Source: Promethearchaeota archaeon (lineage in GTDB: Archaea; Asgardarchaeota; Lokiarchaeia; Sigyniarchaeales; SOKP01). From it: DNA of 64,000 nt. The notes beneath the pieces were generated by a model. The model worked only from the letters and a program-made list of their open reading frames with translations. It had not been told where the DNA came from and ran no database searches. The number at the start of each line of letters is the position of its first letter. Position 1 is the first letter of the stretch. The DNA lies in assembly GCA_016840085.1 (NCBI GenBank), contig JAEOTA010000056.1, forward strand, positions 5,328-69,327, given 5' to 3'. Position numbers and translations under genes: made by a program. Below are positions 1,428 through 19,640 of the stretch, one piece after another.

Positions 1428-1537
1428 ATTACTACCGTTTTATTTTAAAACCTTGTGATATAATAGAGAGCCCACTATTAATATTTATTTTCTTGATAAT
1501 AGGAAAGTTTTTTTTTATAGAAATAACTGAGTCTTAT

Positions 1538-1894
1538 ATGACATCTGAACCTGATTTAAAGATCATCTTTCAAGAATGGAATGAATTGAATATTAAGACC
1601 CAGGAGTCTCTTGGACAATTTGATTTCTCCAAAATTAAAGAAATCAGAAAGAAACAGAAAGAAATTGAAGATTCGATATTTGAAATTCTCAAATCAAACG
1701 CACCAGATAATATTAAAGCACTATTACCTGATGATTGTGGGGAAATGGAAGTAGGTTTTGAGAGTGAAGAAAAAACATTTTATTTTGTAATGTTTGACCC
1801 TGAGTGTAGTGATGATGAGGAAGAAGCTCTTATTGCAATTACTATCAATACAAATAAAGACGTGAAAATGATTAAAGATTTTGAAATGGAGTAA
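1538..1894 (+). CDS. Hypothetical acidic protein
   Basis: ORF 1403..1894; ATG at 1538 avoids overlap with the divergent gene; protein-like composition. Confidence 0.6.
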   Translation: MTSEPDLKIIFQEWNELNIKTQESLGQFDFSKIKEIRKKQKEIEDSIFEILKSNAPDNIKALLPDDCGEMEVGFESEEKTFYFVMFDPECSDDEEEALIAITINTNKDVKMIKDFEME

Positions 1895-4521: not shown

Positions 4522-5886
4522 TTATTCTAATTTTGCGTGTTTTTCAGCATGCATTTGCAATACTTTTTCTTGGATTTCTTTTAAATAATCTCCTTTAAGT
4601 GGATAAAATACAAGAAGAATAACTCCAATTATCATGGCAATACCGGGTATTAGTCCTATTATGATTTTTATCATAAATATCGCACTAGAAGGTTGAGCTA
4701 TTTCTTCTGTTAGAAAACCAGCAAGTGATAATAACCATGGACCAATAGAAATAGCAATAGATTGAGCAGGTTTAGTAAGCATAGCATTAGTACCGAAAAA
4801 TGCTGCTTCTCTTCTAACTCCCGATTTAATTTCATCTTCATCAGCAACTTGACCATAAAGGACGTTTGTTAATACTAAAGGACCAGCTAATCCAATCCCT
4901 CCAATAAACAAACTAATATAAATTAAAGTATCAGGAACAAATGGTACAATTATTAAAAACACTGCACCAAAACCTAGAAGAATTTGATTTGCTTGAACAA
5001 CACCAAATCTACCGGCAAGAATATTTGTGAAGAATACGCCAACAATTATCCCTCCAATTAACGCTGCCAATAAAATTATTGTAGAAACCATCATAACATA
5101 GTCCGCTAAATAAAACATGTAACTCAAAATAATTTGTTGAAATAAAATTGACATGAAATTGGCTGCCGTTAATATCAGAAACGCTTTACTTTTAAATGTA
5201 TATTTAATTGATGCACCCAGTTTTAGTGGTTCATCAACTTGTGTAAATTCAGGGCGCTCTTTAAATCTATAAGTTGTTAAGATTACACAAGCAGCTCCAA
5301 TTACTCCAACTATTATCATCCCTATATAAAACCAAGTTAAATTGGTTTGTCCTACTTCAGGTCGTACAAGATCGGGGATTATAAAACCAAAAATTGCCCC
5401 TATTAAATAAAATATAGAACTATATTGTTGAAATTCACCTCTTACTTTGTCTTCTTCACTCAATTCAGGTAATAAAGCAGAATATACTAGACCGATTATA
5501 GTATAACAGGTATCATACAAACACATTAATAATAACATCCAGAGAAAGATAGAAAGTTGATCAAAATTTAGAGGGACGAACCAAAATATAATAAATGTTA
5601 ATGCAAGAAATGGTGCTGTGAATCTCATAAACGGAATACGACGACCTAATTTACTTCTAGTTTTATCTGATAAATATCCAAAAATTGGATCATTTAAAGC
5701 ATTCCAGATTGCGTAGATCCAAGCAGCAACTCCTATTAAAAATGGATCTAAATTTAGATAGACATGATAAAAAATTACTGTAGTTGTAGCAAAAACTCCA
5801 GAAATTATAGATGTTCCGAAATTAGCAATTCCCCATATTGCTTTATCTTTCGTAGTATATATTCGAGCACTACTATTTTCTGACAT
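4522..5886 (-). CDS. MFS transporter, GPH/MelB glycoside:cation symporter family
   Basis: WNALNDPIFGYLSDKTRSKLGRRIPF and ADEDEIKSGVRREA motifs; ~12 TM; ATG at 5886. Confidence 0.9.
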   Translation of the reverse strand: MSENSSARIYTTKDKAIWGIANFGTSIISGVFATTTVIFYHVYLNLDPFLIGVAAWIYAIWNALNDPIFGYLSDKTRSKLGRRIPFMRFTAPFLALTFIIFWFVPLNFDQLSIFLWMLLLMCLYDTCYTIIGLVYSALLPELSEEDKVRGEFQQYSSIFYLIGAIFGFIIPDLVRPEVGQTNLTWFYIGMIIVGVIGAACVILTTYRFKERPEFTQVDEPLKLGASIKYTFKSKAFLILTAANFMSILFQQIILSYMFYLADYVMMVSTIILLAALIGGIIVGVFFTNILAGRFGVVQANQILLGFGAVFLIIVPFVPDTLIYISLFIGGIGLAGPLVLTNVLYGQVADEDEIKSGVRREAAFFGTNAMLTKPAQSIAISIGPWLLSLAGFLTEEIAQPSSAIFMIKIIIGLIPGIAMIIGVILLVFYPLKGDYLKEIQEKVLQMHAEKHAKLE

Positions 5887-8406: not shown

Positions 8407-8724
8407 GTGTCTGGAAAGGCTTTTAATTATTGTCCTCATTGTGGAAAAAAATTACCAAAAACTAATGGTTCCAAAGCAAATTTTTGTTGTTATTGTGGGC
8501 GTAAATTAAGAAATGAAAATAAGAAAACATACACCAGAATCCAATGTACAATTTGTCATAAGTATATTAGTAATGAATATATAAATACTATAAAATGTTC
8601 TTACTGCGGAAGTCAATATCATTCAAGCTGTGTAACCTCTTGGCTCTTAAAATATAATGCGTGTCCTATGTGTCAAAATGTTTTTATTTTTCCTGATAAG
8701 AAATTAATTGAATTAAAACATTAA
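8407..8724 (+). CDS. Double zinc-ribbon + RING-finger protein (putative E3 ligase-like)
   Basis: CPHCG...FCCYCG, then CTIC-x13-CSYC-x4-HSSC..W..CPMC. Confidence 0.8.
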   Translation: MSGKAFNYCPHCGKKLPKTNGSKANFCCYCGRKLRNENKKTYTRIQCTICHKYISNEYINTIKCSYCGSQYHSSCVTSWLLKYNACPMCQNVFIFPDKKLIELKH

Positions 8725-10044: not shown

Positions 10045-10269
10045 TTAATCACTCAGAAACTCATGGATTAAAATTTCCTTAAATTCTAAGTGTTTTTCTT
10101 TGAATGGGATCATTTCTTTTCCATCATAAATATCTGGAGGTGTGAATTTTTTAAATGCAACAGAGAAAGGGATGATAAGATTTGAGATATCAGGAAAATT
10201 ATTATTATCTACAGCTTCTTCATCAATATTAATTATTTTTATTTTTTTATCAATTATTTTTATACTCAA
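10045..10269 (-). CDS. Small IPF-motif family protein, copy 1
   Basis: ISNLIIPFSVAFKKFTPPDIYDGKEMIPFKEKHLEFKEILIHEF; TTG start with GAGGG 7 nt upstream. Confidence 0.8.
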   Translation of the reverse strand: MSIKIIDKKIKIINIDEEAVDNNNFPDISNLIIPFSVAFKKFTPPDIYDGKEMIPFKEKHLEFKEILIHEFLSD

Positions 10270-10834: not shown

Positions 10835-11074
10835 TTAATCAACCGTAAATTCAGCTATAAGAATCTTATGATATTTAGGGTGTCTTTCATTAAAAGGAAT
10901 TTTTTCATCTCCATTGTAAATATATTGAGGGTTCTCAATTTCATAAACTTTAGAAAAAGGTATAACTGCTTCTGAGATGATTGGATAAAATTTTTCTTCA
11001 AAATCTTCAATAATTTCCTGAAAAATTCTTTGATTATATCCTAATACCCTCTTGATGTTCTCGTATATTAAATG
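10835..11074 (-). CDS. IPF-motif family protein, copy 3 (not in ORF track; no canonical start codon)
   Basis: Manual translation: ...ISEAVIPFSKVYEIENPQYIYNGDEKIPFNERHPKYHKILIAEFTVD*; frame open from 11074 to the stop at 10835. Confidence 0.75.
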   Translation of the reverse strand, partial: HLIYENIKRVLGYNQRIFQEIIEDFEEKFYPIISEAVIPFSKVYEIENPQYIYNGDEKIPFNERHPKYHKILIAEFTVD

Positions 11075-11265: not shown

Positions 11266-11577
11266 TTAATCAGAAATTCGTTCTAATTTAAAACATACAG
11301 GGCGAATACCATCTGGACATGCGGTATATATCATATCCTCTCCAGTCCAAGTGGGAAACCCACCTCCACATTGTAGAATAGACACATTCTTGTATAACCC
11401 ATACCACGCATGATGACAAAAACCTTCTGGCATATCCCCTGTTTCGTCTACAATAAACTCCATTCCCTCTTTTATACCACATTTAGTAATTGGGGTTCCG
11501 TCAAGTCGGATAAACTCATGTCCTAGTACATCCTCCGGTCCAAATTGTTTTACTACAGTAATTTTCACCTTACTCAT
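11266..11577 (-). CDS. TIGR04076-like Cys-containing small protein
   Basis: KVKITV, MPEGFCHHAW, ACPDGIRPVCFKLERI. Confidence 0.85.
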   Translation of the reverse strand: MSKVKITVVKQFGPEDVLGHEFIRLDGTPITKCGIKEGMEFIVDETGDMPEGFCHHAWYGLYKNVSILQCGGGFPTWTGEDMIYTACPDGIRPVCFKLERISD

Positions 11578-11652: not shown

Positions 11653-11982
11653 TTAATCTGAAATTCGCTCTAATTTAAAGCAAACAGGTTTACGACCATC
11701 CGAACATGATGTATGTTGAATACCTTCTTTATGTCCATAAAAATTCCCATTAAAATAGAGTACAGAAAGATCTTTATAGATATCGCGCCACGCCCAGCCA
11801 CAAAATCCCTCTGGCATTTTTTCAATATGTTCCACTATGAATTCTTGTCCCTCATCGAAGGCACCGCATGTAGTTATTTTTGTTCCCGATGTAGAAAATA
11901 CTTCATGTCCAAATACATCAATCGGACTGAATTTCTTAATTACAGTAATTTTTACTTTTGAAATTTCAATATTCACCATCAA
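11653..11982 (-). CDS. TIGR04076-like small protein (tandem paralog)
   Basis: KVKITV, MPEGFCGWAW, SCSDGRKPVCFKLERISD. Confidence 0.85.
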   Translation of the reverse strand: MMVNIEISKVKITVIKKFSPIDVFGHEVFSTSGTKITTCGAFDEGQEFIVEHIEKMPEGFCGWAWRDIYKDLSVLYFNGNFYGHKEGIQHTSCSDGRKPVCFKLERISD

Positions 11983-13974: not shown

Positions 13975-14043
13975 TTAGATTAAGTTTGCAAATTCTTTTC
14001 TTAAAATCATCAAACATTCTAGATCTCTCTCTTAAAAATGAAT
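13975..14043 (-). pseudogene. 3' remnant of an IPF-motif family gene (copy 4)
   Basis: Translates IHF*ERDLECLMILRKEFANLI*; 54/69 nt identical (hand count) to the 3' end of the copy at 16269-16337. Confidence 0.75.
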
Positions 14044-14221: not shown

Positions 14222-16123
14222 ATGAAAAATAAAAAAATTTTAATAGTGTTAATACTCCTTATTTTAAATTTTAGCTTCGTGTTTCAGAAATATAACACTA
14301 TTAATACAGTTCAAGAAGAATGCGACAAGAAAGAAATAAACCCTATATTATCTTCTAGTATTTCTATTGCATACGAATGGAATAGGACATGGGACGGAGG
14401 TATTAATGATGAGGATTTGGCTTATGGAATCGTATTAGATACATCAGGTAATATTTATCTTGGGGGATATACATACAATAGTGTGAGTTATTATGACATA
14501 TGTGTGGTAAAATTTAACAGCTCTGGTGACTACCAATGGAATAGCACATGGGACGGAGGTATTAATGATGATGATTGGGCAAATGGAATAGCATTAGATC
14601 CATTAGGCAATATTTATCTTGCGGGAGTTACCTATAATACGGTAAGTGATTACGACATGTGTGTAGTAAAATTTAATAGCTCTGGTGATTATCAATGGAG
14701 TAGCACATGGGATGGAGGTATTAATGATGATGATAGGGCAAATGGAATAGCATTAGATTCATCAGGTAATATCTACCTTGCGGGATCAACATATAAACTT
14801 GAGAGTAATCACGACATGTGTGTAATAAAATTTAACAGCTCTGGTGACTATCAATGGAATAGCACATGGGATGGAGGTATTAATGATGATGATTATGTTT
14901 ATGGAATAGCATTAGATTCATCAGGTAATAATATCTATCTTGCAGGTGAAACCTACAACAGTGTGAGTCGTCGCGACATGTGTGTAGTAAAATTTGATGA
15001 CTCTGGTGATTATCAATGGAGTAGCACATGGAATGGAGGTATTAATGATAATGATAGGGCATATGGAATAACATTAGATTCATTAGAAAATATCTTTCTT
15101 GCGGGATACACAATAACTCCAGCAAGTTATTACGACATGTGTATAGTAAAATTTGATGACTCTGGTGATTATCAATGGAATAACACATGGGATGGAGGTG
15201 TTAATAATTGGGATTTAGCTTATGGATTAGTATTAGATTCATTAGAAAATATTTTTCTTGCGGGCTTTACAATAAATCCAGCGAGTGGTCTAGACATGTG
15301 TGTAGTAAAATTTGATGACTCTGGTGATTATCAATGGAGTAGCACATGGGATGGAGGTTTTAATGATGAGGATGTAGCTTATGGAATCGCATTCGATTCA
15401 TCAGAGAATATCTATCTTGCAGGATATACACATAAACCAGGGAGTTATGACGACATGTGTTTAGTGAAATATAATTCAGCACCAAAGATTAAGATTAATA
15501 CACCAATCCAGAATAATTATTATAGCATAATTGCCCCAAATTTTGAGATTTCTATTCTTGATTCAGAGTTAGATACTACGTGGTATACTTTAGATGAAGG
15601 GACAACAAACATTATATTTAGTGGATCAATAGGCAATATTAGTCAAGCAGAATGGGATAAAAAAGGCGAAGGTTTAATTACTATTAATTTCCATGCAAAT
15701 GATTCTATAGGCCTTGAGGGAACTTCAGGGGTATCTGTCTATAAAGATATAACGGCTCCAACCTCATCAATATCTTTTACACCGCATAAAGGAACTAATA
15801 TAGTGAAAAAATCAACCAGCTTCAATCTAACTGCTGATGATGGACAAGGTTCAGGCGTTGCTTCGATTATGTATAAAATTAATGATGGGGATTGGACTAA
15901 TTATAGCGATCCATTTGATTTATCTGATTTTAAATCCGGCAATCATAATATCTCATATTATTCAATTGACAAAGTGGGCAATATGGAAAATATAAACTCA
16001 CAACTAGTAAAAATACCTGGACCAGGCGTAATCCCTGGATACAACCTTTTACTTGTGATAAGCTTAATTTGTGTAATTTCAGTTGTTACTATTAAATATC
16101 GAAATAAAAGTCTAAAGAAATAA
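14222..16123 (+). CDS. Secreted SBBP-type 7-bladed beta-propeller surface protein with Ig-like stalk and IPGY/TM/basic C-terminal anchor
   Basis: Signal peptide; 7 repeats W..TWDGG..DD.A.GI.LD..GNIYLAG.T....DMCVVKF; DITAPTS Ig-like domain; IPGY-TM-KYRNK tail. Confidence 0.9.
   Translation: MKNKKILIVLILLILNFSFVFQKYNTINTVQEECDKKEINPILSSSISIAYEWNRTWDGGINDEDLAYGIVLDTSGNIYLGGYTYNSVSYYDICVVKFNSSGDYQWNSTWDGGINDDDWANGIALDPLGNIYLAGVTYNTVSDYDMCVVKFNSSGDYQWSSTWDGGINDDDRANGIALDSSGNIYLAGSTYKLESNHDMCVIKFNSSGDYQWNSTWDGGINDDDYVYGIALDSSGNNIYLAGETYNSVSRRDMCVVKFDDSGDYQWSSTWNGGINDNDRAYGITLDSLENIFLAGYTITPASYYDMCIVKFDDSGDYQWNNTWDGGVNNWDLAYGLVLDSLENIFLAGFTINPASGLDMCVVKFDDSGDYQWSSTWDGGFNDEDVAYGIAFDSSENIYLAGYTHKPGSYDDMCLVKYNSAPKIKINTPIQNNYYSIIAPNFEISILDSELDTTWYTLDEGTTNIIFSGSIGNISQAEWDKKGEGLITINFHANDSIGLEGTSGVSVYKDITAPTSSISFTPHKGTNIVKKSTSFNLTADDGQGSGVASIMYKINDGDWTNYSDPFDLSDFKSGNHNISYYSIDKVGNMENINSQLVKIPGPGVIPGYNLLLVISLICVISVVTIKYRNKSLKK
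14375..15478 (+). repeat. Seven intragenic tandem repeats of 159 bp (one unit 162 bp)
   Basis: Trp codon of the WDGG/WNGG motif at 14390, 14549, 14708, 14867, 15029, 15188, 15347. Confidence 0.92.
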
Positions 16124-16268
16124 ATACAATTTTTTTTCTATTTTTTTAATGAATATTTCTTTTCAAAATTATAATAGTATGGTCATATCGAAAGAAAATA
16201 TACTAATGAAACATGGCTTATTTAATGGCATAATCTAAGATATCAAAATACAAAAATAAATTCTCTTC

Positions 16269-16497
16269 TTAGAAACAATTTGCAAATTCTTGTCTTAAAA
16301 TCATCTTATATTCCGGATCTCTTTCTTTGAAGGGAATTTTTTCCACTACCAGAATAAATATCAATTGATTTATGAGATTTAAACATTTTAGTAAAAGGAA
16401 TGATAATCTGAGAGAAATCTGTACTTTTTTCTAAAACAATTTTATCCGGGCGTACAATGGATTCTTGAGAAAACTTATCTAATTTTCCAGAACTCAT
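16269..16497 (-). pseudogene. Frameshifted IPF-motif family gene (copy 5)
   Basis: FSQIIIPFTKMFKSHKSIDIYSGS, then one extra G; shifted frame continues EKIPFKERDPEYKMILRQEFANCF*, matching the intact copy at 17152..17427. Confidence 0.85.
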
Positions 16498-16512
16498 TTT
16501 AATATCACTTCC

Positions 16513-16997
16513 TTATTCTTTTACAATTAATTTTCCTCTTATTTGGAGTTTAATTCCAAGTTTTTCTAATTTATTTCGATATTCAAATATAATATCTCTC
16601 AGAATTTTCTTACTGATTTCTAGTTGTTCTGCCAAGATGTTAAATTCTATTTCATTGAATAGTTCTGAATACCTTACTATTTTCTGAACTTAATCTTGTA
16701 TAACTTGATCATAATCTGCTATTTCGATTTCTCTTGTAATATCATTTAATCTAAATTATATTTGCAAGTACATTAAGCTTCTCCGTCTAATTATATAAAT
16801 TTTTCATAATAAGGGATGCTCCATCGAAGAAAAATTCAATTTTCTTTAGTAATTTTAAATTCTCAGAAATAATCTTCTATTCTAACTTCAGATGATTTAG
16901 AATTAGCCAGTTTTTTAATTATCCTATCATAAAAAATATCCAAATAAACCACATGAACTACTGGTTTAAAAAATAATTTATCAATTCTTTCTGTCAA
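16513..16997 (-). pseudogene. Degraded paralog of the RHH/HTH gene 17450..17911
   Basis: From TTG 16997: ..VHVVYLDIFYDRIIKKLAN..*; another frame gives ..IQD*VQKIVRYSELFNEIEFNILAEQLEISKKILRDIIFEYRNKLEKLGIKLQIRGKLIVKE*; in-frame stops plus a frame change. Confidence 0.75.
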
Positions 16998-17151
16998 TCA
17001 GAATAACTAAAAATAGAATTGAAATTTAAGTCTTTTTAATCAATAAATCTAAGAAAAGTTATGTGTAATTTTTAGAATCTGTTATCATTTTCAACTGTTT
17101 TTTGTTCTAGCGCTGGTACTTTAAAAAAAGTTAAAAATGTAAGGCCAGATA

Positions 17152-17427
17152 TTAAAGAGTAGGAAATTTTATAACTGATTTATAGACCTTAAATTCAACT
17201 TTTAAGATATTGGCAAACTCTTGCCTTAAAATCATTTTATATTCAGGATCTCTTTCTTTAAATGGAATTTTTTCATTTCCAGAATATATATCAGAGGTTT
17301 CATATTTCCTAAAGAGTTTTGAGAAAGGAATGACAATTTCAGAAAGATTCAAATGCATTTCAAAGATTTCTTTTTGAATTTTTTCATCAAATGTATTAAG
17401 TAATTTATTTGAACTCATAATGCTCAA
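17152..17427 (-). CDS. IPF-motif family protein, copy 6 (intact)
   Basis: LSEIVIPFSKLFRKYETSDIYSGNEKIPFKERDPEYKMILRQEFAN; 22 nt downstream of the RHH gene. Confidence 0.85.
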   Translation of the reverse strand: MSIMSSNKLLNTFDEKIQKEIFEMHLNLSEIVIPFSKLFRKYETSDIYSGNEKIPFKERDPEYKMILRQEFANILKVEFKVYKSVIKFPTL

Positions 17428-17449
17428 TCTTTAGTTTATTTTATTTGAC

Positions 17450-17911
17450 TTAAATTTTAAATATTTGACCTTCTTTTAATTTTAGATTTAAACCTACTTT
17501 TTTAATCTCTTTACTATGTGTAAATATAATTTTTTTAATTATTTTGTTAGGAACATCAAAATGATCTGCTAGATCATCAATATCTACAACTTCGACTATT
17601 TCAAAAAACTCGGGAAGCTCTTTAATAATATCCTTCTCAATTTTTCGTAATGTCTTATCTAAAGCTAAACTTGCAGATTCAGAAAAAATTTCATCTGAAA
17701 TCTCCTTTATATCTACTCCATAATTTTTCTTTAGTAAATCAGGATTACTTTCAATCCATTGATGAACTATATTTCTCATACTATTTGAAAGAGATATATT
17801 TCTATTGGTAGCCATTTTATTTATTACTCTATGATCAAAATCATCTAATTTGACAGTAATTCTTGTTTTTTTCTCTTCAATATCCTCTTGATTTGTAGAT
17901 TCAGATGGCAT
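17450..17911 (-). CDS. Ribbon-helix-helix (CopG-like) + C-terminal HTH-like DNA-binding protein
   Basis: RITVKLDD..RVINKMATNRNISLSNSMRNIV RHH pattern; VDIDDLADHFDVPNKIIKKII HTH-like. Confidence 0.78.
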   Translation of the reverse strand: MPSESTNQEDIEEKKTRITVKLDDFDHRVINKMATNRNISLSNSMRNIVHQWIESNPDLLKKNYGVDIKEISDEIFSESASLALDKTLRKIEKDIIKELPEFFEIVEVVDIDDLADHFDVPNKIIKKIIFTHSKEIKKVGLNLKLKEGQIFKI

Positions 17912-17992
17912 TCTTCTAATCCGACAAAATTAACCAGTTGAGATATAAATGATCATTAAAGTATATAAATATTTGCATTCTTGATTCGAAAG

Positions 17993-18010
17993 TGCATCGA
18001 TTGTGATGCA
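17993..18010. promoter_or_regulatory. Inverted repeat TGCATC-N6-GATGCA in the divergent promoter region (candidate operator)
   Basis: Perfect 6-bp arms in an AT-rich spacer between 17911(-) and 18102(+). Confidence 0.4.
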
Positions 18011-18101
18011 TAAATTTAAATATGAATTAATTCAATAATATCTTAATAATATCAAAATGACACTACGATATTACTAACATTTAAAAAAGAATTAGGATTC
18101 T

Positions 18102-18752
18102 GTGTGTAAAATGTTAGAACTCTATACCCCTAATTATGAAGTAATAAGTACCAAAGAACGAATAACCATTGATTTAATAAAAGATGGTCAAGAATTCTTG
18201 GAGCAATTTGACATTAACCATGAATTTTTATTAGATACTGTTTCCTTAGTATATAGATATTTAAGGATCAATGAGAAAATTCCCCATAATTTATATAAAT
18301 TCTTTGTGGCTGCATATTACATAATAACCAGACATCCATATAATTTTCCTGTTCATGAAACTAAGAGTGAACTTTGTCAGAAATTTGGCTTACAGGTGAG
18401 TTCTTTAGAGTATTGCGTAGAAAAGATGATTAACTCATTGAATTATATTAAATTATTAGATGATTCGAATTTCCCATATTTTGTTGATCCTGAACGAGAC
18501 ATTCGGTTAAATCTAACAAAAAGTATTACGAAGAAGAAAGTTGATAAAGCGATGATGAATTTTCTACTCTATCATCAACCAATAAACTCGCAAATCCTTA
18601 CTGAAGAGTTAGTACATGAAATAATTTTTGAACAAAAAGCGTTTCCAGAGGAACTTTTCCGTCAATTATATGAAATAATAATTGAATTCGTTGAAAAGCA
18701 ATTTATAGACTATAATGAATATGCAAAAATGCAACAAAAATATTTTATATAA
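18102..18752 (+). CDS. Protein with a single TFIIB/cyclin-like repeat
   Basis: FVAAYYIITR...TKSELCQKFGLQVSSL resembles the TFB AAxxYIAxR...TxxEVAxxxGVxxxTI; no zinc ribbon; alternative ATG at 18111. Confidence 0.6.
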   Translation: MCKMLELYTPNYEVISTKERITIDLIKDGQEFLEQFDINHEFLLDTVSLVYRYLRINEKIPHNLYKFFVAAYYIITRHPYNFPVHETKSELCQKFGLQVSSLEYCVEKMINSLNYIKLLDDSNFPYFVDPERDIRLNLTKSITKKKVDKAMMNFLLYHQPINSQILTEELVHEIIFEQKAFPEELFRQLYEIIIEFVEKQFIDYNEYAKMQQKYFI

Positions 18753-18800
18753 ATATCTGAATTGATACTAATTTAGAATTAATAACAATCTAAAGAAAAC

Positions 18801-19640
18801 CTATTTCTTTTTTATTATATATCCGCATTGTGGACAAAAATTTAAATGCTCAGTTATTTGCATACCACAAAATTTACATCTAAAAGAAAATGTTTTTGGT
18901 TCCGCTTCTTTGGGTTCGGAAAATGATGAAATTGGGTCTGATTGGATAATCGAGGTAGTTTGAGGTTTTATATCCTTTTGTTCTGTGATTGATGGAACTG
19001 TTTGTAATTTTCTATCTGTATCTTGATGAACCTCAATAATAGCTTTTAAAGCTTTTTCATTAATTTTATCTTCTTTAGCATCTAAATTGATTGGAGTGGG
19101 TTTTGTTTTTTTAAACTTTGGTATAATATCTTTAGCTATAGGCTTTAAAGGAGGTACCAGGTCTTCTACTGGAATTGTTTGCCTTTTATCAATATATTCT
19201 TCAAAATCATTTTTAGTAGCTTTTCTTAAACTGTACCGATTCCCACAAATCTCGCAAAAATCTCTAATTGTATCTGTGAAATTCTTGCAGTTATCACAAA
19301 TAAAAGGCTGAGCTTCTAGAAAGGTTTTCCTATCTTGTATTAACGGTGTTAGAAATCCCACGCTCTCTCTATCACGATCTCTTTTTTCTTTTTTTTCTCT
19401 TTTAGGTTTAAAAGAAGAATTTTCAGTTTTAGGTTTGTAAGTAACTATATGATAATGAATTTCTCCGTTATATAGAGTTGAATATATTTTTCCACTAGAT
19501 TTCAATTCATTTAAGATTTTTGTGAGATGTTTTTTGCCATATTTTATCTCATTAGAAGGTAATATAAAATTATCTAATCTTTTCTTCAAAGCATTAACTG
19601 AAAGTGCTTTTCCTTGATATTCTTTCAAGTAATTAAGCAA
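18801..19640 (-). CDS. Winged-helix + zinc-ribbon protein
   Basis: LTKILNELKSSGKI wHTH; CDNC..CEICG and CKFCG..CPQCG ribbons. Confidence 0.7.
   Translation of the reverse strand: MLNYLKEYQGKALSVNALKKRLDNFILPSNEIKYGKKHLTKILNELKSSGKIYSTLYNGEIHYHIVTYKPKTENSSFKPKREKKEKRDRDRESVGFLTPLIQDRKTFLEAQPFICDNCKNFTDTIRDFCEICGNRYSLRKATKNDFEEYIDKRQTIPVEDLVPPLKPIAKDIIPKFKKTKPTPINLDAKEDKINEKALKAIIEVHQDTDRKLQTVPSITEQKDIKPQTTSIIQSDPISSFSEPKEAEPKTFSFRCKFCGMQITEHLNFCPQCGYIIKKK

Follow-up and report, generated by a model that had tools for sequence, protein, structure and literature searches.

A single-box TFIIB/cyclin-fold protein of Asgard archaea and the RHH-like regulator divergent from it

Introduction

In archaea, a cyclin-fold transcription factor and small ribbon-helix-helix (RHH) repressors drive cyclic transcription (10.64898/2026.09.06.749720, PMC7617429; see also PMC9976878, PMC13199686). 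Reviews and recent work describe archaea as having no cyclins or CDKs. According to a 2024 review, TACK archaea lack obvious homologues of cyclins or cyclin-dependent kinases, and TFB2 is a cyclically expressed factor with the cyclin fold (PMC7617429). A 2026 preprint calls TFB the probable ancestor of cyclins and states that Asgard cyclin-fold proteins need analysis to resolve the path; it also describes a Sulfolobus TFB2 without its N-terminus, built as a dominant-negative and unable to recruit RNA polymerase (10.64898/2026.09.06.749720). Here we examine an Asgard locus in which a gene for a 213-residue protein with a single cyclin box is divergent from a gene for an RHH-like regulator, followed by a gene for a small protein with a conserved IPF core. 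It lies in a 64,000-nucleotide stretch (the window) of a Promethearchaeota archaeon of the class Lokiarchaeia, positions 5,328 to 69,327 of contig JAEOTA010000056.1 (assembly GCA_016840085.1).

Cyclin-like matches have been noted before, in surveys of eukaryotic signature proteins in Asgard archaea. Two 2021 preprints report InterPro “cyclin-like” matches in all new Asgard metagenome-assembled genomes (MAGs), and one of the two notes them in most reference archaea; we infer that these matches are TFB-type. The main texts of two Asgard structure-prediction papers mention CINP only. Our search of the literature on Asgard and archaeal cyclins, the cyclin box, and the cyclin fold returned, among the papers listed, no description of the family studied here, which the supplements of the Asgard structure-prediction papers could contain.

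The pairing of a cyclin-fold gene with an RHH-like gene invites a loose analogy with Sulfolobus TFB2 and the RHH cell-cycle regulators aCcr1-3. The components differ, however: TFB2 is a full TFB, and the 153-residue regulator gave no evidence of homology to aCcr1. The 213-residue protein has an architecture that is new to the TFIIB/cyclin fold class.

Results

The 213-residue protein contains one TFIIB/cyclin-type box

Both an AlphaFold2 (AF2) model and a sequence profile were derived from 35 aligned members of the family, the most distant of which share about 20% identity. The model (pLDDT 89.5, pTM 0.83) consists of five helices (residues 14-110), a beta-hairpin (113-125), and three long helices (131-212). 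Compared with the Protein Data Bank (PDB) by Foldseek, it gave six matches at E<=0.001, all of them TFIIB (best E 2.7e-4, probability 1.00), and the further rows among the matches listed were all TFIIB, Brf, TFB, or cyclin. A VIA-align run over 48,161 representative chains placed the similarity in residues ~10-127, with human TFIIB (5iy6_M) at Z 12.0 and a root-mean-square deviation (rmsd) of 3.2 A over 104 residues, which correspond to chain residues 105-209, the first repeat. Cyclin A followed at Z 11.5 (rmsd 2.7 over 101 residues), then 6xi8_B (11.4), cyclin C (10.8), Pyrococcus TFB (10.7), and an RNA polymerase III entry (10.5), with cyclin B1 (9.7), an ORC entry (8.5), and Rb (7.8) in lower rows. 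By entry title, the top 31 rows were all TFIIB/TFB/Brf, cyclin, ORC, or Rb. The C-domain, residues 130-213, found generic three-helix matches only, at Z<=7.5.

Sequence comparison led to the same region. Searched against all PDB sequences, the family profile had 15 matches at E<=10, of which 12 were cyclin B1 or TFIIB; the best was cyclin B1 (E 0.0097), and the cyclin B1 and TFIIB matches cover the region that was matched in structure. Against nine TFBs of the same genome, hhalign gave E 3.9e-4, and the segment AAxYIxxR...SSLE aligns with TFB. The protein carries a conserved AAxYIxxR motif (A67, A68, Y70, I71, R74). As modelled and aligned, residues ~10-127 are one TFIIB/cyclin-type box, of which the five-helix repeat takes up residues ~10-112.

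Conservation is highest in helix 3 (A67, A68, Y70, I71), in the loop that follows (R74, H75, P76, P80), and in the hairpin (D117, P122, Y123, F124, D126), whose consensus is DDxNFPYFxDP; helix 3, the RHP loop, and the hairpin are the likely functional surface of the protein. Two further ideas about the sequence were dropped. A His/Cys metal site, suggested by two His and two Cys that are invariant in the close set, has three of its four residues replaced in distant members, and kinship with DUF6398 was suggested by a homologue that in the protein atlas matched, besides its own cluster, DUF6398 only, at a similarity (0.88-0.89) that falls below the lead threshold.

The initial annotation of the window, made from its letters, had taken this gene to carry a TFB-like single repeat without a zinc ribbon, joined to a helical C-domain of no recognizable type, and had proposed a Foldseek comparison with TFB and cyclins. 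That comparison returned the TFIIB/cyclin-type fold, profile and structure matches together with the family scans described below bear out the single ribbon-less repeat, and the C-domain is helical in the AF2 model and specific to nothing in VIA-align.

The protein lacks the parts that make a TFB or a canonical cyclin

No Pfam or NCBIfam family matches the 213-residue protein at E<=1, Zn_Ribbon_TF, Cyclin_N, and Cyclin_C included. Its cyclin box starts at about residue 10-14, preceded by ~13 residues of low pLDDT ahead of helix 1, and therefore leaves no room for a zinc ribbon, B-reader, or B-linker. A second cyclin repeat was not found in the model or by VIA-align. PF00382 detects 11 two-repeat TFB loci in the same genome, both repeats scoring above the cut-off, and misses the cyclin-box gene even at E<=10. 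The protein has an isoelectric point (pI) of 5.3 and the Loki-type members are acidic; over the whole 35-member alignment, pI lies between 4.5 and 9.8. As aligned by hhalign, the helix opposite the TFB helix that recognizes the B recognition element (BRE; VTEVTLRSR.KEL) reads SSLEYCVEKMINSL and is acidic where TFB is basic. The TFB family of this genome is large; one of its 11 loci lies in an 815-aa frame, and one, at C51:71547-72107, is ~2.2 kb beyond the end of the window.

The protein thus resembles TFB and TFIIB in its five-helix cyclin-type repeat, the AAxYIxxR helix, and an HTH-like helix pair, and differs from them in the missing zinc ribbon, B-reader, B-linker, and second repeat, in its acidity, in escaping PF00382, and in the possession of an extra conserved RHPxxFP loop, a beta-hairpin, and a three-helix C-domain. 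With cyclins, Rb, and Orc6 it shares the same fold at similar scores, cyclin B1 being the top profile match, and like cyclins it is acidic, free-standing, and devoid of DNA-reading features. It differs from cyclins in having one box and no Cyclin_N or Cyclin_C match. A kinase gene was not seen in the conserved neighbourhoods inspected around the cyclin-box gene.

The family is mostly single-copy and conserved across much of Asgard

A database search with the 213-residue protein found 462 matching proteins at E<=0.01. The best 120 of these are 67-92% identical to the query, and those with names are “hypothetical protein” of Asgard MAGs. Among 1.84 billion cluster representatives, 41 clusters only were matched at E<=1e-3. 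In a set of 5.8 billion proteins, the family profile found, among the matches listed, close relatives only, all “hypothetical”, and of 10 distant representatives looked up by cluster, the three with names were again hypotheticals of Asgard MAGs.

Across 400 genomes of the phylum, the single sequence finds the family in 245 and the profile in 273. The profile detects the gene in 131 of the 134 genomes of the window's own family and in all or nearly all genomes of several other families, with none in others (e.g., 0/31, 0/22, 0/12). One match per genome is usual outside two genera, the window's genus and one sister genus, in which there are one to seven. Within the genus, the cyclin-box gene is 72-91% identical, as against 65-70% for the neighbouring 281-aa gene at the same loci. 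The family is, then, an orphan that is Asgard-wide, mostly single-copy, and conserved across much of Asgard.

Three proteins of ~635 residues in the same genome, two of them encoded in tandem, carry the cyclin-box module (profile positions 10-191) between two winged helix-turn-helix (wHTH) domains and a tetratricopeptide repeat (TPR) array (Table 1). Among the available clues, this fusion hints most strongly at a role of the module in regulatory complexes bound to DNA.

An RHH-like regulator adjoins the gene throughout the family

The locus was initially annotated as a two-gene minus-strand operon separated by a spacer of ~190 bp from a divergent larger gene. These coordinates hold (Table 1), with the start of the larger gene revised. 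The plus-strand open reading frame (ORF) 18102-18752 is also open from the GTG at 18102, which would give 216 aa, but the Met of MLELY is the start of most homologues in a 27-sequence alignment, so that the likely start is the ATG at 18111. Counted to the GTG, the spacer is 190 bp long, and counted to the ATG, 199 bp; the gTGTGTGTaAA DNA directly before the ATG is sometimes translated by gene callers as VCKM or VCEM. On the minus strand, the IPF gene lies 22 bp downstream of the regulator gene; its ORF (17152-17427) would encode 91 aa from a TTG, and the database copy of the same protein has 88 aa from the ATG at 17418.

Table 1. Features of the cyclin-box locus and related elements (positions in the window unless a contig and locus are given)
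Feature	Position	Strand	Basis
Cyclin-box gene, 213 aa	18111..18752	+	Start from alignment; AF2 model; structure and profile matches
Regulator gene, 153 aa	17450..17911	-	Weak RHH, RelB, ParG, and Arc matches; alignment
IPF small protein gene, 88 aa	17152..17418	-	109 relatives; alignment
Shared control region	17912..18110	.	Alignment of 37 spacers
TATA-1, TATATAAATATTT, leftwards contains TTTAAATA-like	17962..17974	-	Conserved column block TATtTAAATaTTtg
Palindrome TGCATC-N6-GATGCA, candidate operator	17993..18010	.	Spacer alignment and genome scan
TATA-2, ATTTAAATAT, consensus AgATTTAtAaATg	18014..18023	+	37-spacer alignment
Inverted repeat ATAATAT ... ATATTAT	18036..18080	.	Conserved, between TATA-2 and start codon
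gTGTGTGTaAA	18100..18110	+	Conserved directly before ATG
Decayed earlier cassette	16258..16749	-	Remnant regulator and frameshifted IPF copy
Further IPF copies or fragments	10045-10269, 10844-10978, 13978-14043, 16258-16497	-	In gaps between unrelated genes
~635-aa paralogues, two in tandem	G000:C43 (L002 874-2778; L066 955-2865), G000:C3 (L067 703-2616)		

The 153-aa putative regulator consists of an RHH-like segment (residues ~17-59), a linker, and a C-terminal putative winged-HTH (~110-153), the latter assigned from its sequence pattern only. Its RHH-type matches are all sub-threshold but agree among themselves: RelB_antitoxin (E 7.7e-6, 26.1 bits, cut-off 50), DUF6290 (E 2.3e-5, 24.9 bits, cut-off 27), RHH_1 (E 0.074, 13.5 bits, cut-off 20.5), ParG and E73 (E 0.08-0.13), and an Arc-like phrog (E 0.008).

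Among 29 loci of the same genus, a divergent regulator gene adjoins the cyclin-box gene in 28 and an IPF gene is present in 27; the misses fall at contig ends, and so consistent an arrangement is not due to chance. Elsewhere in the family, nine of 10 loci examined from other genera have the regulator next to the cyclin-box gene and one of 10 has the IPF gene there. A regulator profile finds matches in 127 of 135 genomes of the window's family, and in 108 of 112 genomes, representing all 13 genera, the best regulator match is on the same contig as the cyclin-box gene, on the opposite strand, and ~180-530 bp away, as counted by eye from the printed coordinates of the two genes. Of the four exceptions, two have the genes on different contigs, one has no cyclin-box coordinate listed, and one has them 26 kb apart. 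Conservation of all three genes as a triad, put forward at first as a check, is only partly upheld: the linkage of regulator and cyclin-box gene is family-wide, but that of the IPF gene does not extend to most loci in the other genera.

In four other families of the class, the gene flanking the cyclin-box gene is again small and putatively DNA-binding, but of a different kind: an RHH-like gene of 82 aa, which is co-oriented and lies upstream; a divergent gene for a 163-aa HTH_10 protein; divergent genes for 98-152-aa wHTH proteins; or ~95-aa winged-helix-like genes. With the exception of HTH_10, the Pfam matches of these flanking genes are weak.

At 10 loci of other Asgard classes (L054-L063), neither the regulator nor the IPF gene was found. 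Eight of the 10 have a gene for a ~175-205-aa coiled-coil protein, of no known family, directly upstream of the cyclin-box gene and in the same orientation (e.g., L056, 3254-3847 and 1954-2664), and nearby there is a divergent gene combining a zinc ribbon (DUF1922/DUF5817-like) with an MCM-type winged helix. The coiled-coil profile has no match in PDB or NCBIfam and a weak candidate homologue elsewhere in the window's genome (G000:C19, L068 1426-2046; E 0.002). As a homologue of the IPF protein or of the regulator, the coiled-coil protein was rejected (hhalign E 0.86 and 0.32, respectively). The gene for a 279-aa zinc-ribbon protein downstream of the cyclin-box gene (18801-19640) was set aside as part of the module, being present in two of the 29 same-genus loci only. 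The type of zinc-ribbon gene that neighbours the cyclin-box operon in other classes also occurs in the window's genome, where a DUF1922-like zinc-ribbon/winged-helix gene, recognized by eye (L004, G000:C50, 964-1497, plus strand), stands tail to tail with an IPF-like 72-aa gene (1489-1707, minus strand).

A unique palindrome lies between back-to-back TATA boxes

The length of the spacer between the regulator and cyclin-box genes is nearly constant, being 184-188 bp in 21 of 37 aligned spacers and ~185-200 bp overall. A conserved block, CCGACAAAA, adjoins the regulator start, and two TATA boxes point away from each other. By position, TATA-1 would be the promoter of the regulator operon and TATA-2 that of the cyclin-box gene. 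The palindrome TGCATC-N6-GATGCA sits between the two boxes and ends 3 bp before TATA-2. An exact copy is present in 24 of the 37 spacers; it stands 100 bp upstream of the ATG in 20 of them and 117-118 bp upstream in the window's subtype. Five other spacers carry different TGCA...TGCA pairs and six carry none. One match was found in the window, where 0.06 would be expected, and this is the sole site in the 4.68-Mb genome; the backwards-control sequence has none. Across its sequence types, the regulator retains the beta-strand segment R-I-T-x-x-L-D, in keeping with an operator common to them.

Between TATA-2 and the start codon, the conserved ATAATAT/ATATTAT repeat may be an operator or an RNA hairpin. 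RNAalifold applied to 21 leaders of the majority type yielded no persuasive consensus fold, with a 6-pair stem only (-2.7 kcal/mol), an inverted repeat with long arms (15-20 nt) occurs in seven of the 37 loci only, and a search of 16200-19000 against Rfam gave one sub-threshold match (E 0.72). The gTGTGTGTaAA element that directly precedes the ATG is not Shine-Dalgarno-like and is conserved at the DNA level across the family.

The regulator-IPF operon has been replaced at a fixed site

At 50% identity, the regulators fall into at least nine types, and these cut across the relationships of the cyclin-box genes. Loci L020 and L023 have cyclin-box genes that are 95% identical and regulators that are 30% identical; at L047 and L053 the cyclin-box genes are 52% and the regulators 66% identical. 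The window itself holds a decayed earlier cassette 400 bp beyond the intact operon. Its regulator remnant (16516-16749) is a majority-type regulator of which the C-terminal 78 residues are left, interrupted by an in-frame stop; over these 78 aa it is 90% identical to the regulator of locus L030. A copy of IPF with a frameshift (16258-16497) adjoins it, and at the DNA level identity is 77% over 468 bp. The remnant and its IPF copy indicate that a variant cassette replaced an older one at the same site. Sequence comparison shows the regulator-IPF operon to be a fast-evolving cassette that has been repeatedly replaced at a fixed position.

The IPF protein is a multi-copy family of one archaeal lineage

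A database search found 109 relatives of the IPF protein, which share a strongly conserved core of ~45 residues, IPFSK..F....DIYSG.EKIPFKERDPEYK.ILRQEF. There was no match to it in Pfam or NCBIfam (E<=1), PADLOC, PHROGs, or the PDB profile search. Its model has pLDDT 63.7 and pTM 0.24, with no secondary structure in the core, a profile that fits a partner-dependent peptide. IPF genes occur in 105 of 135 genomes of the family, in eight of 13 genera, at one to eight matches per genome, many of them with stops. The window has five copies or fragments from 10.0 to 17.4 kb, each of them on the minus strand. In other genomes too, copies occur on the regulator side at distances of up to ~10 kb; tandem accretion, or a hot spot of integration at IPF, may be at work. 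The phyletic pattern speaks against an obligatory pairing of IPF with the cyclin-box family. Since the IPF distribution is narrow and unstable, a co-factor of the cassette fits better than an obligatory ligand of an Asgard-wide protein, and IPF, judged from its model, is probably a small, unstructured co-factor of the regulator cassette.

Other genes of the window

Elsewhere in the window, 8407-8724 (plus strand) encodes a 105-aa Cys-rich protein whose C-terminal part appears RING-H2-like by eye (C..C...C.H..C..C...C..C). Adjacent paralogous genes at 11266-11577 and 11653-11982 (minus strand) encode Cys-containing proteins of ~105 aa that both end in …PVCFKLERISD. At 14222-16123 (plus strand) there is a gene for a 633-aa protein with about eight repeats of ~50 residues (…YDMCVVKFNSSGDYQW.STWDGG.ND.D.A.GIALDS.GNIYLAG…) and a C-terminal hydrophobic anchor.

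Discussion

The reading that we favour, and to which we give about an even chance of being right, is that the 213-residue protein is a protein-binding cyclin-box adaptor under a dedicated local regulator. The protein would serve as an adaptor or regulatory subunit in the way that cyclins, Rb, and Orc6 use the fold, and not as an initiation factor. Such a role appears the most likely one because the protein has no parts that would recruit RNA polymerase, is acidic, and presents an acidic counterpart of the DNA-reading helix. For the same reasons, together with the missing second repeat, it is unlikely to be, in the TFB sense, the “alternative transcription factor” that was one of the two roles first suggested. 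Its partners would probably be DNA-bound transcription regulators, since paralogues are fused to wHTH and TPR domains and small RHH or wHTH genes neighbour the family throughout the class. The divergent RHH-like regulator would probably bind TGCATC-N6-GATGCA between the back-to-back TATA boxes, and, so bound, would control both its own operon and the cyclin-box gene, whatever the sign of that regulation may be.

Several observations weigh against this reading. Whole-protein Foldseek TM-scores are low (0.32-0.39, with rmsd 10-16 A over ~200 columns), as a consequence of residues ~10-127 alone matching in VIA-align. A Z of ~12 is below the mark of ~13 for the tool, where common helical arrangements can score; against this caution, the profile matches in PDB stand as independent sequence evidence. 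The hhalign probability for the TFB comparison is 35% only. Basic pI values occur in some distant members (7.8-9.8 in nine of 35 sequences), so that the absence of DNA binding may not hold family-wide. All of the RHH-type matches at regulator residues 17-59 are below their curated cut-offs, and the palindrome is absent or altered in 13 of 37 spacers though those loci also carry a regulator. Finally, the different neighbours outside the class imply that the link to the regulator is lineage-specific.

The regulator and IPF genes could instead be a selfish cassette of the toxin-antitoxin or addiction kind, lodged at a stable site and without any functional tie to the cyclin-box gene, an account we consider unlikely. 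Like operons of RHH antitoxins and of Arc and CopG, this one has an N-terminal RHH-like motif, here resembling RelB and DUF6290 antitoxins, a small gene immediately downstream of the regulator, and a palindrome in its own promoter region. The many regulator types discordant with the cyclin-box gene, the replacement recorded by the decayed remnant, and the multi-copy, pseudogene-rich IPF family are also as expected of such an element. However, the 153-aa regulator has an extra C-terminal putative wHTH, and its position is fixed beside one conserved gene in 13 genera (108 of 112 genomes of the family), unlike that of mobile toxin-antitoxin loci. In other genera, loci without an adjacent IPF gene still have the regulator (9/10 vs 1/10), and the shared spacer is conserved, including the promoter side of the cyclin-box gene. 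None of the three genes has a PADLOC match, and PHROGs match the regulator only, weakly, with an Arc-like repressor among the matches. The downstream IPF protein matched no toxin family or profile, and no toxin-like fold was seen in its low-confidence model.

Alternatively, the 213-residue protein could be a truncated TFB paralogue that docks on TBP-DNA or on RNA polymerase and competes with, or modulates, the many TFBs of the genome. The best structural matches are TFIIB first repeats, the AAxYIxxR...SSLE segment aligns with TFB, and the presence of 11 two-repeat TFB loci makes a modulator plausible; the Sulfolobus TFB2 without its N-terminus, as described in the 2026 preprint, is a dominant-negative precedent (10.64898/2026.09.06.749720). 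We nevertheless regard this as distinctly unlikely, given that cyclins score as high as TFIIB, that PF00382 does not detect the protein, and that the helix equivalent to the TFB HTH is acidic in a protein of pI 5.3. Only one repeat is present in the 213 residues, whereas in the solved TFIIB/TFB-TBP-DNA complexes both repeats take part.

A cyclin-like switch has also been proposed, with the IPF peptides as candidate ligands; they would attach to the cyclin box through their conserved IPF...DIYSG...IPFKER core. Peptide binding is a known property of cyclin boxes, and IPF behaves as a motif that folds on a partner might, with no confident fold and no predicted secondary structure in its core. In the genus, 27 of 29 loci have an IPF gene no more than ~700 bp from the cyclin-box gene, and additional copies cluster over ~10 kb on the side of the regulator, in the window's genome and in others. 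The distributions, however, disagree: the cyclin-box family is in 273 of 400 genomes, IPF in eight of 13 genera of one family with many stops, and at loci of other genera IPF is adjacent in one of 10. Moreover, IPF would be co-transcribed with the regulator and not with the cyclin-box gene. We therefore hold this proposal to be very improbable.

Eukaryotic Orc6 is built of TFIIB-like cyclin boxes, and an Orc6-like replication factor working with Orc1/Cdc6 or MCM might be imagined from the ORC-MCM entry 8s0d_F (Z 8.5, rmsd 2.8 over 89 residues) and the MCM-type winged helix of the neighbouring zinc-ribbon protein in other classes, but this is barely credible, as the match ranks below ~20 rows of TFIIB and cyclins, no replication gene is found in the conserved neighbourhood, and the paralogues are fused to wHTH and TPR domains.

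A conserved protein with one box, no ribbon, and a regulator of its own offers a concrete, testable case in which to study the spread of the cyclin fold beyond TFB; what it binds would reveal whether the fold was already in use as a regulatory adaptor in Asgard archaea. A broader version, which we advance as a long shot, takes the family to be a regulatory subunit that consists of a free-standing cyclin box and occurs Asgard-wide, a lineage whose TFB fold had left initiation and become a switch for binding proteins before eukaryotes arose. It would act with exchangeable partners, either DNA-binding proteins or peptides (RHH/wHTH, IPF, the coiled-coil protein of other classes). If true, no prokaryotic analogue of cyclins, Rb, or Orc6 would be closer than this subunit, which would open a way into the origin of cyclin-type regulation.

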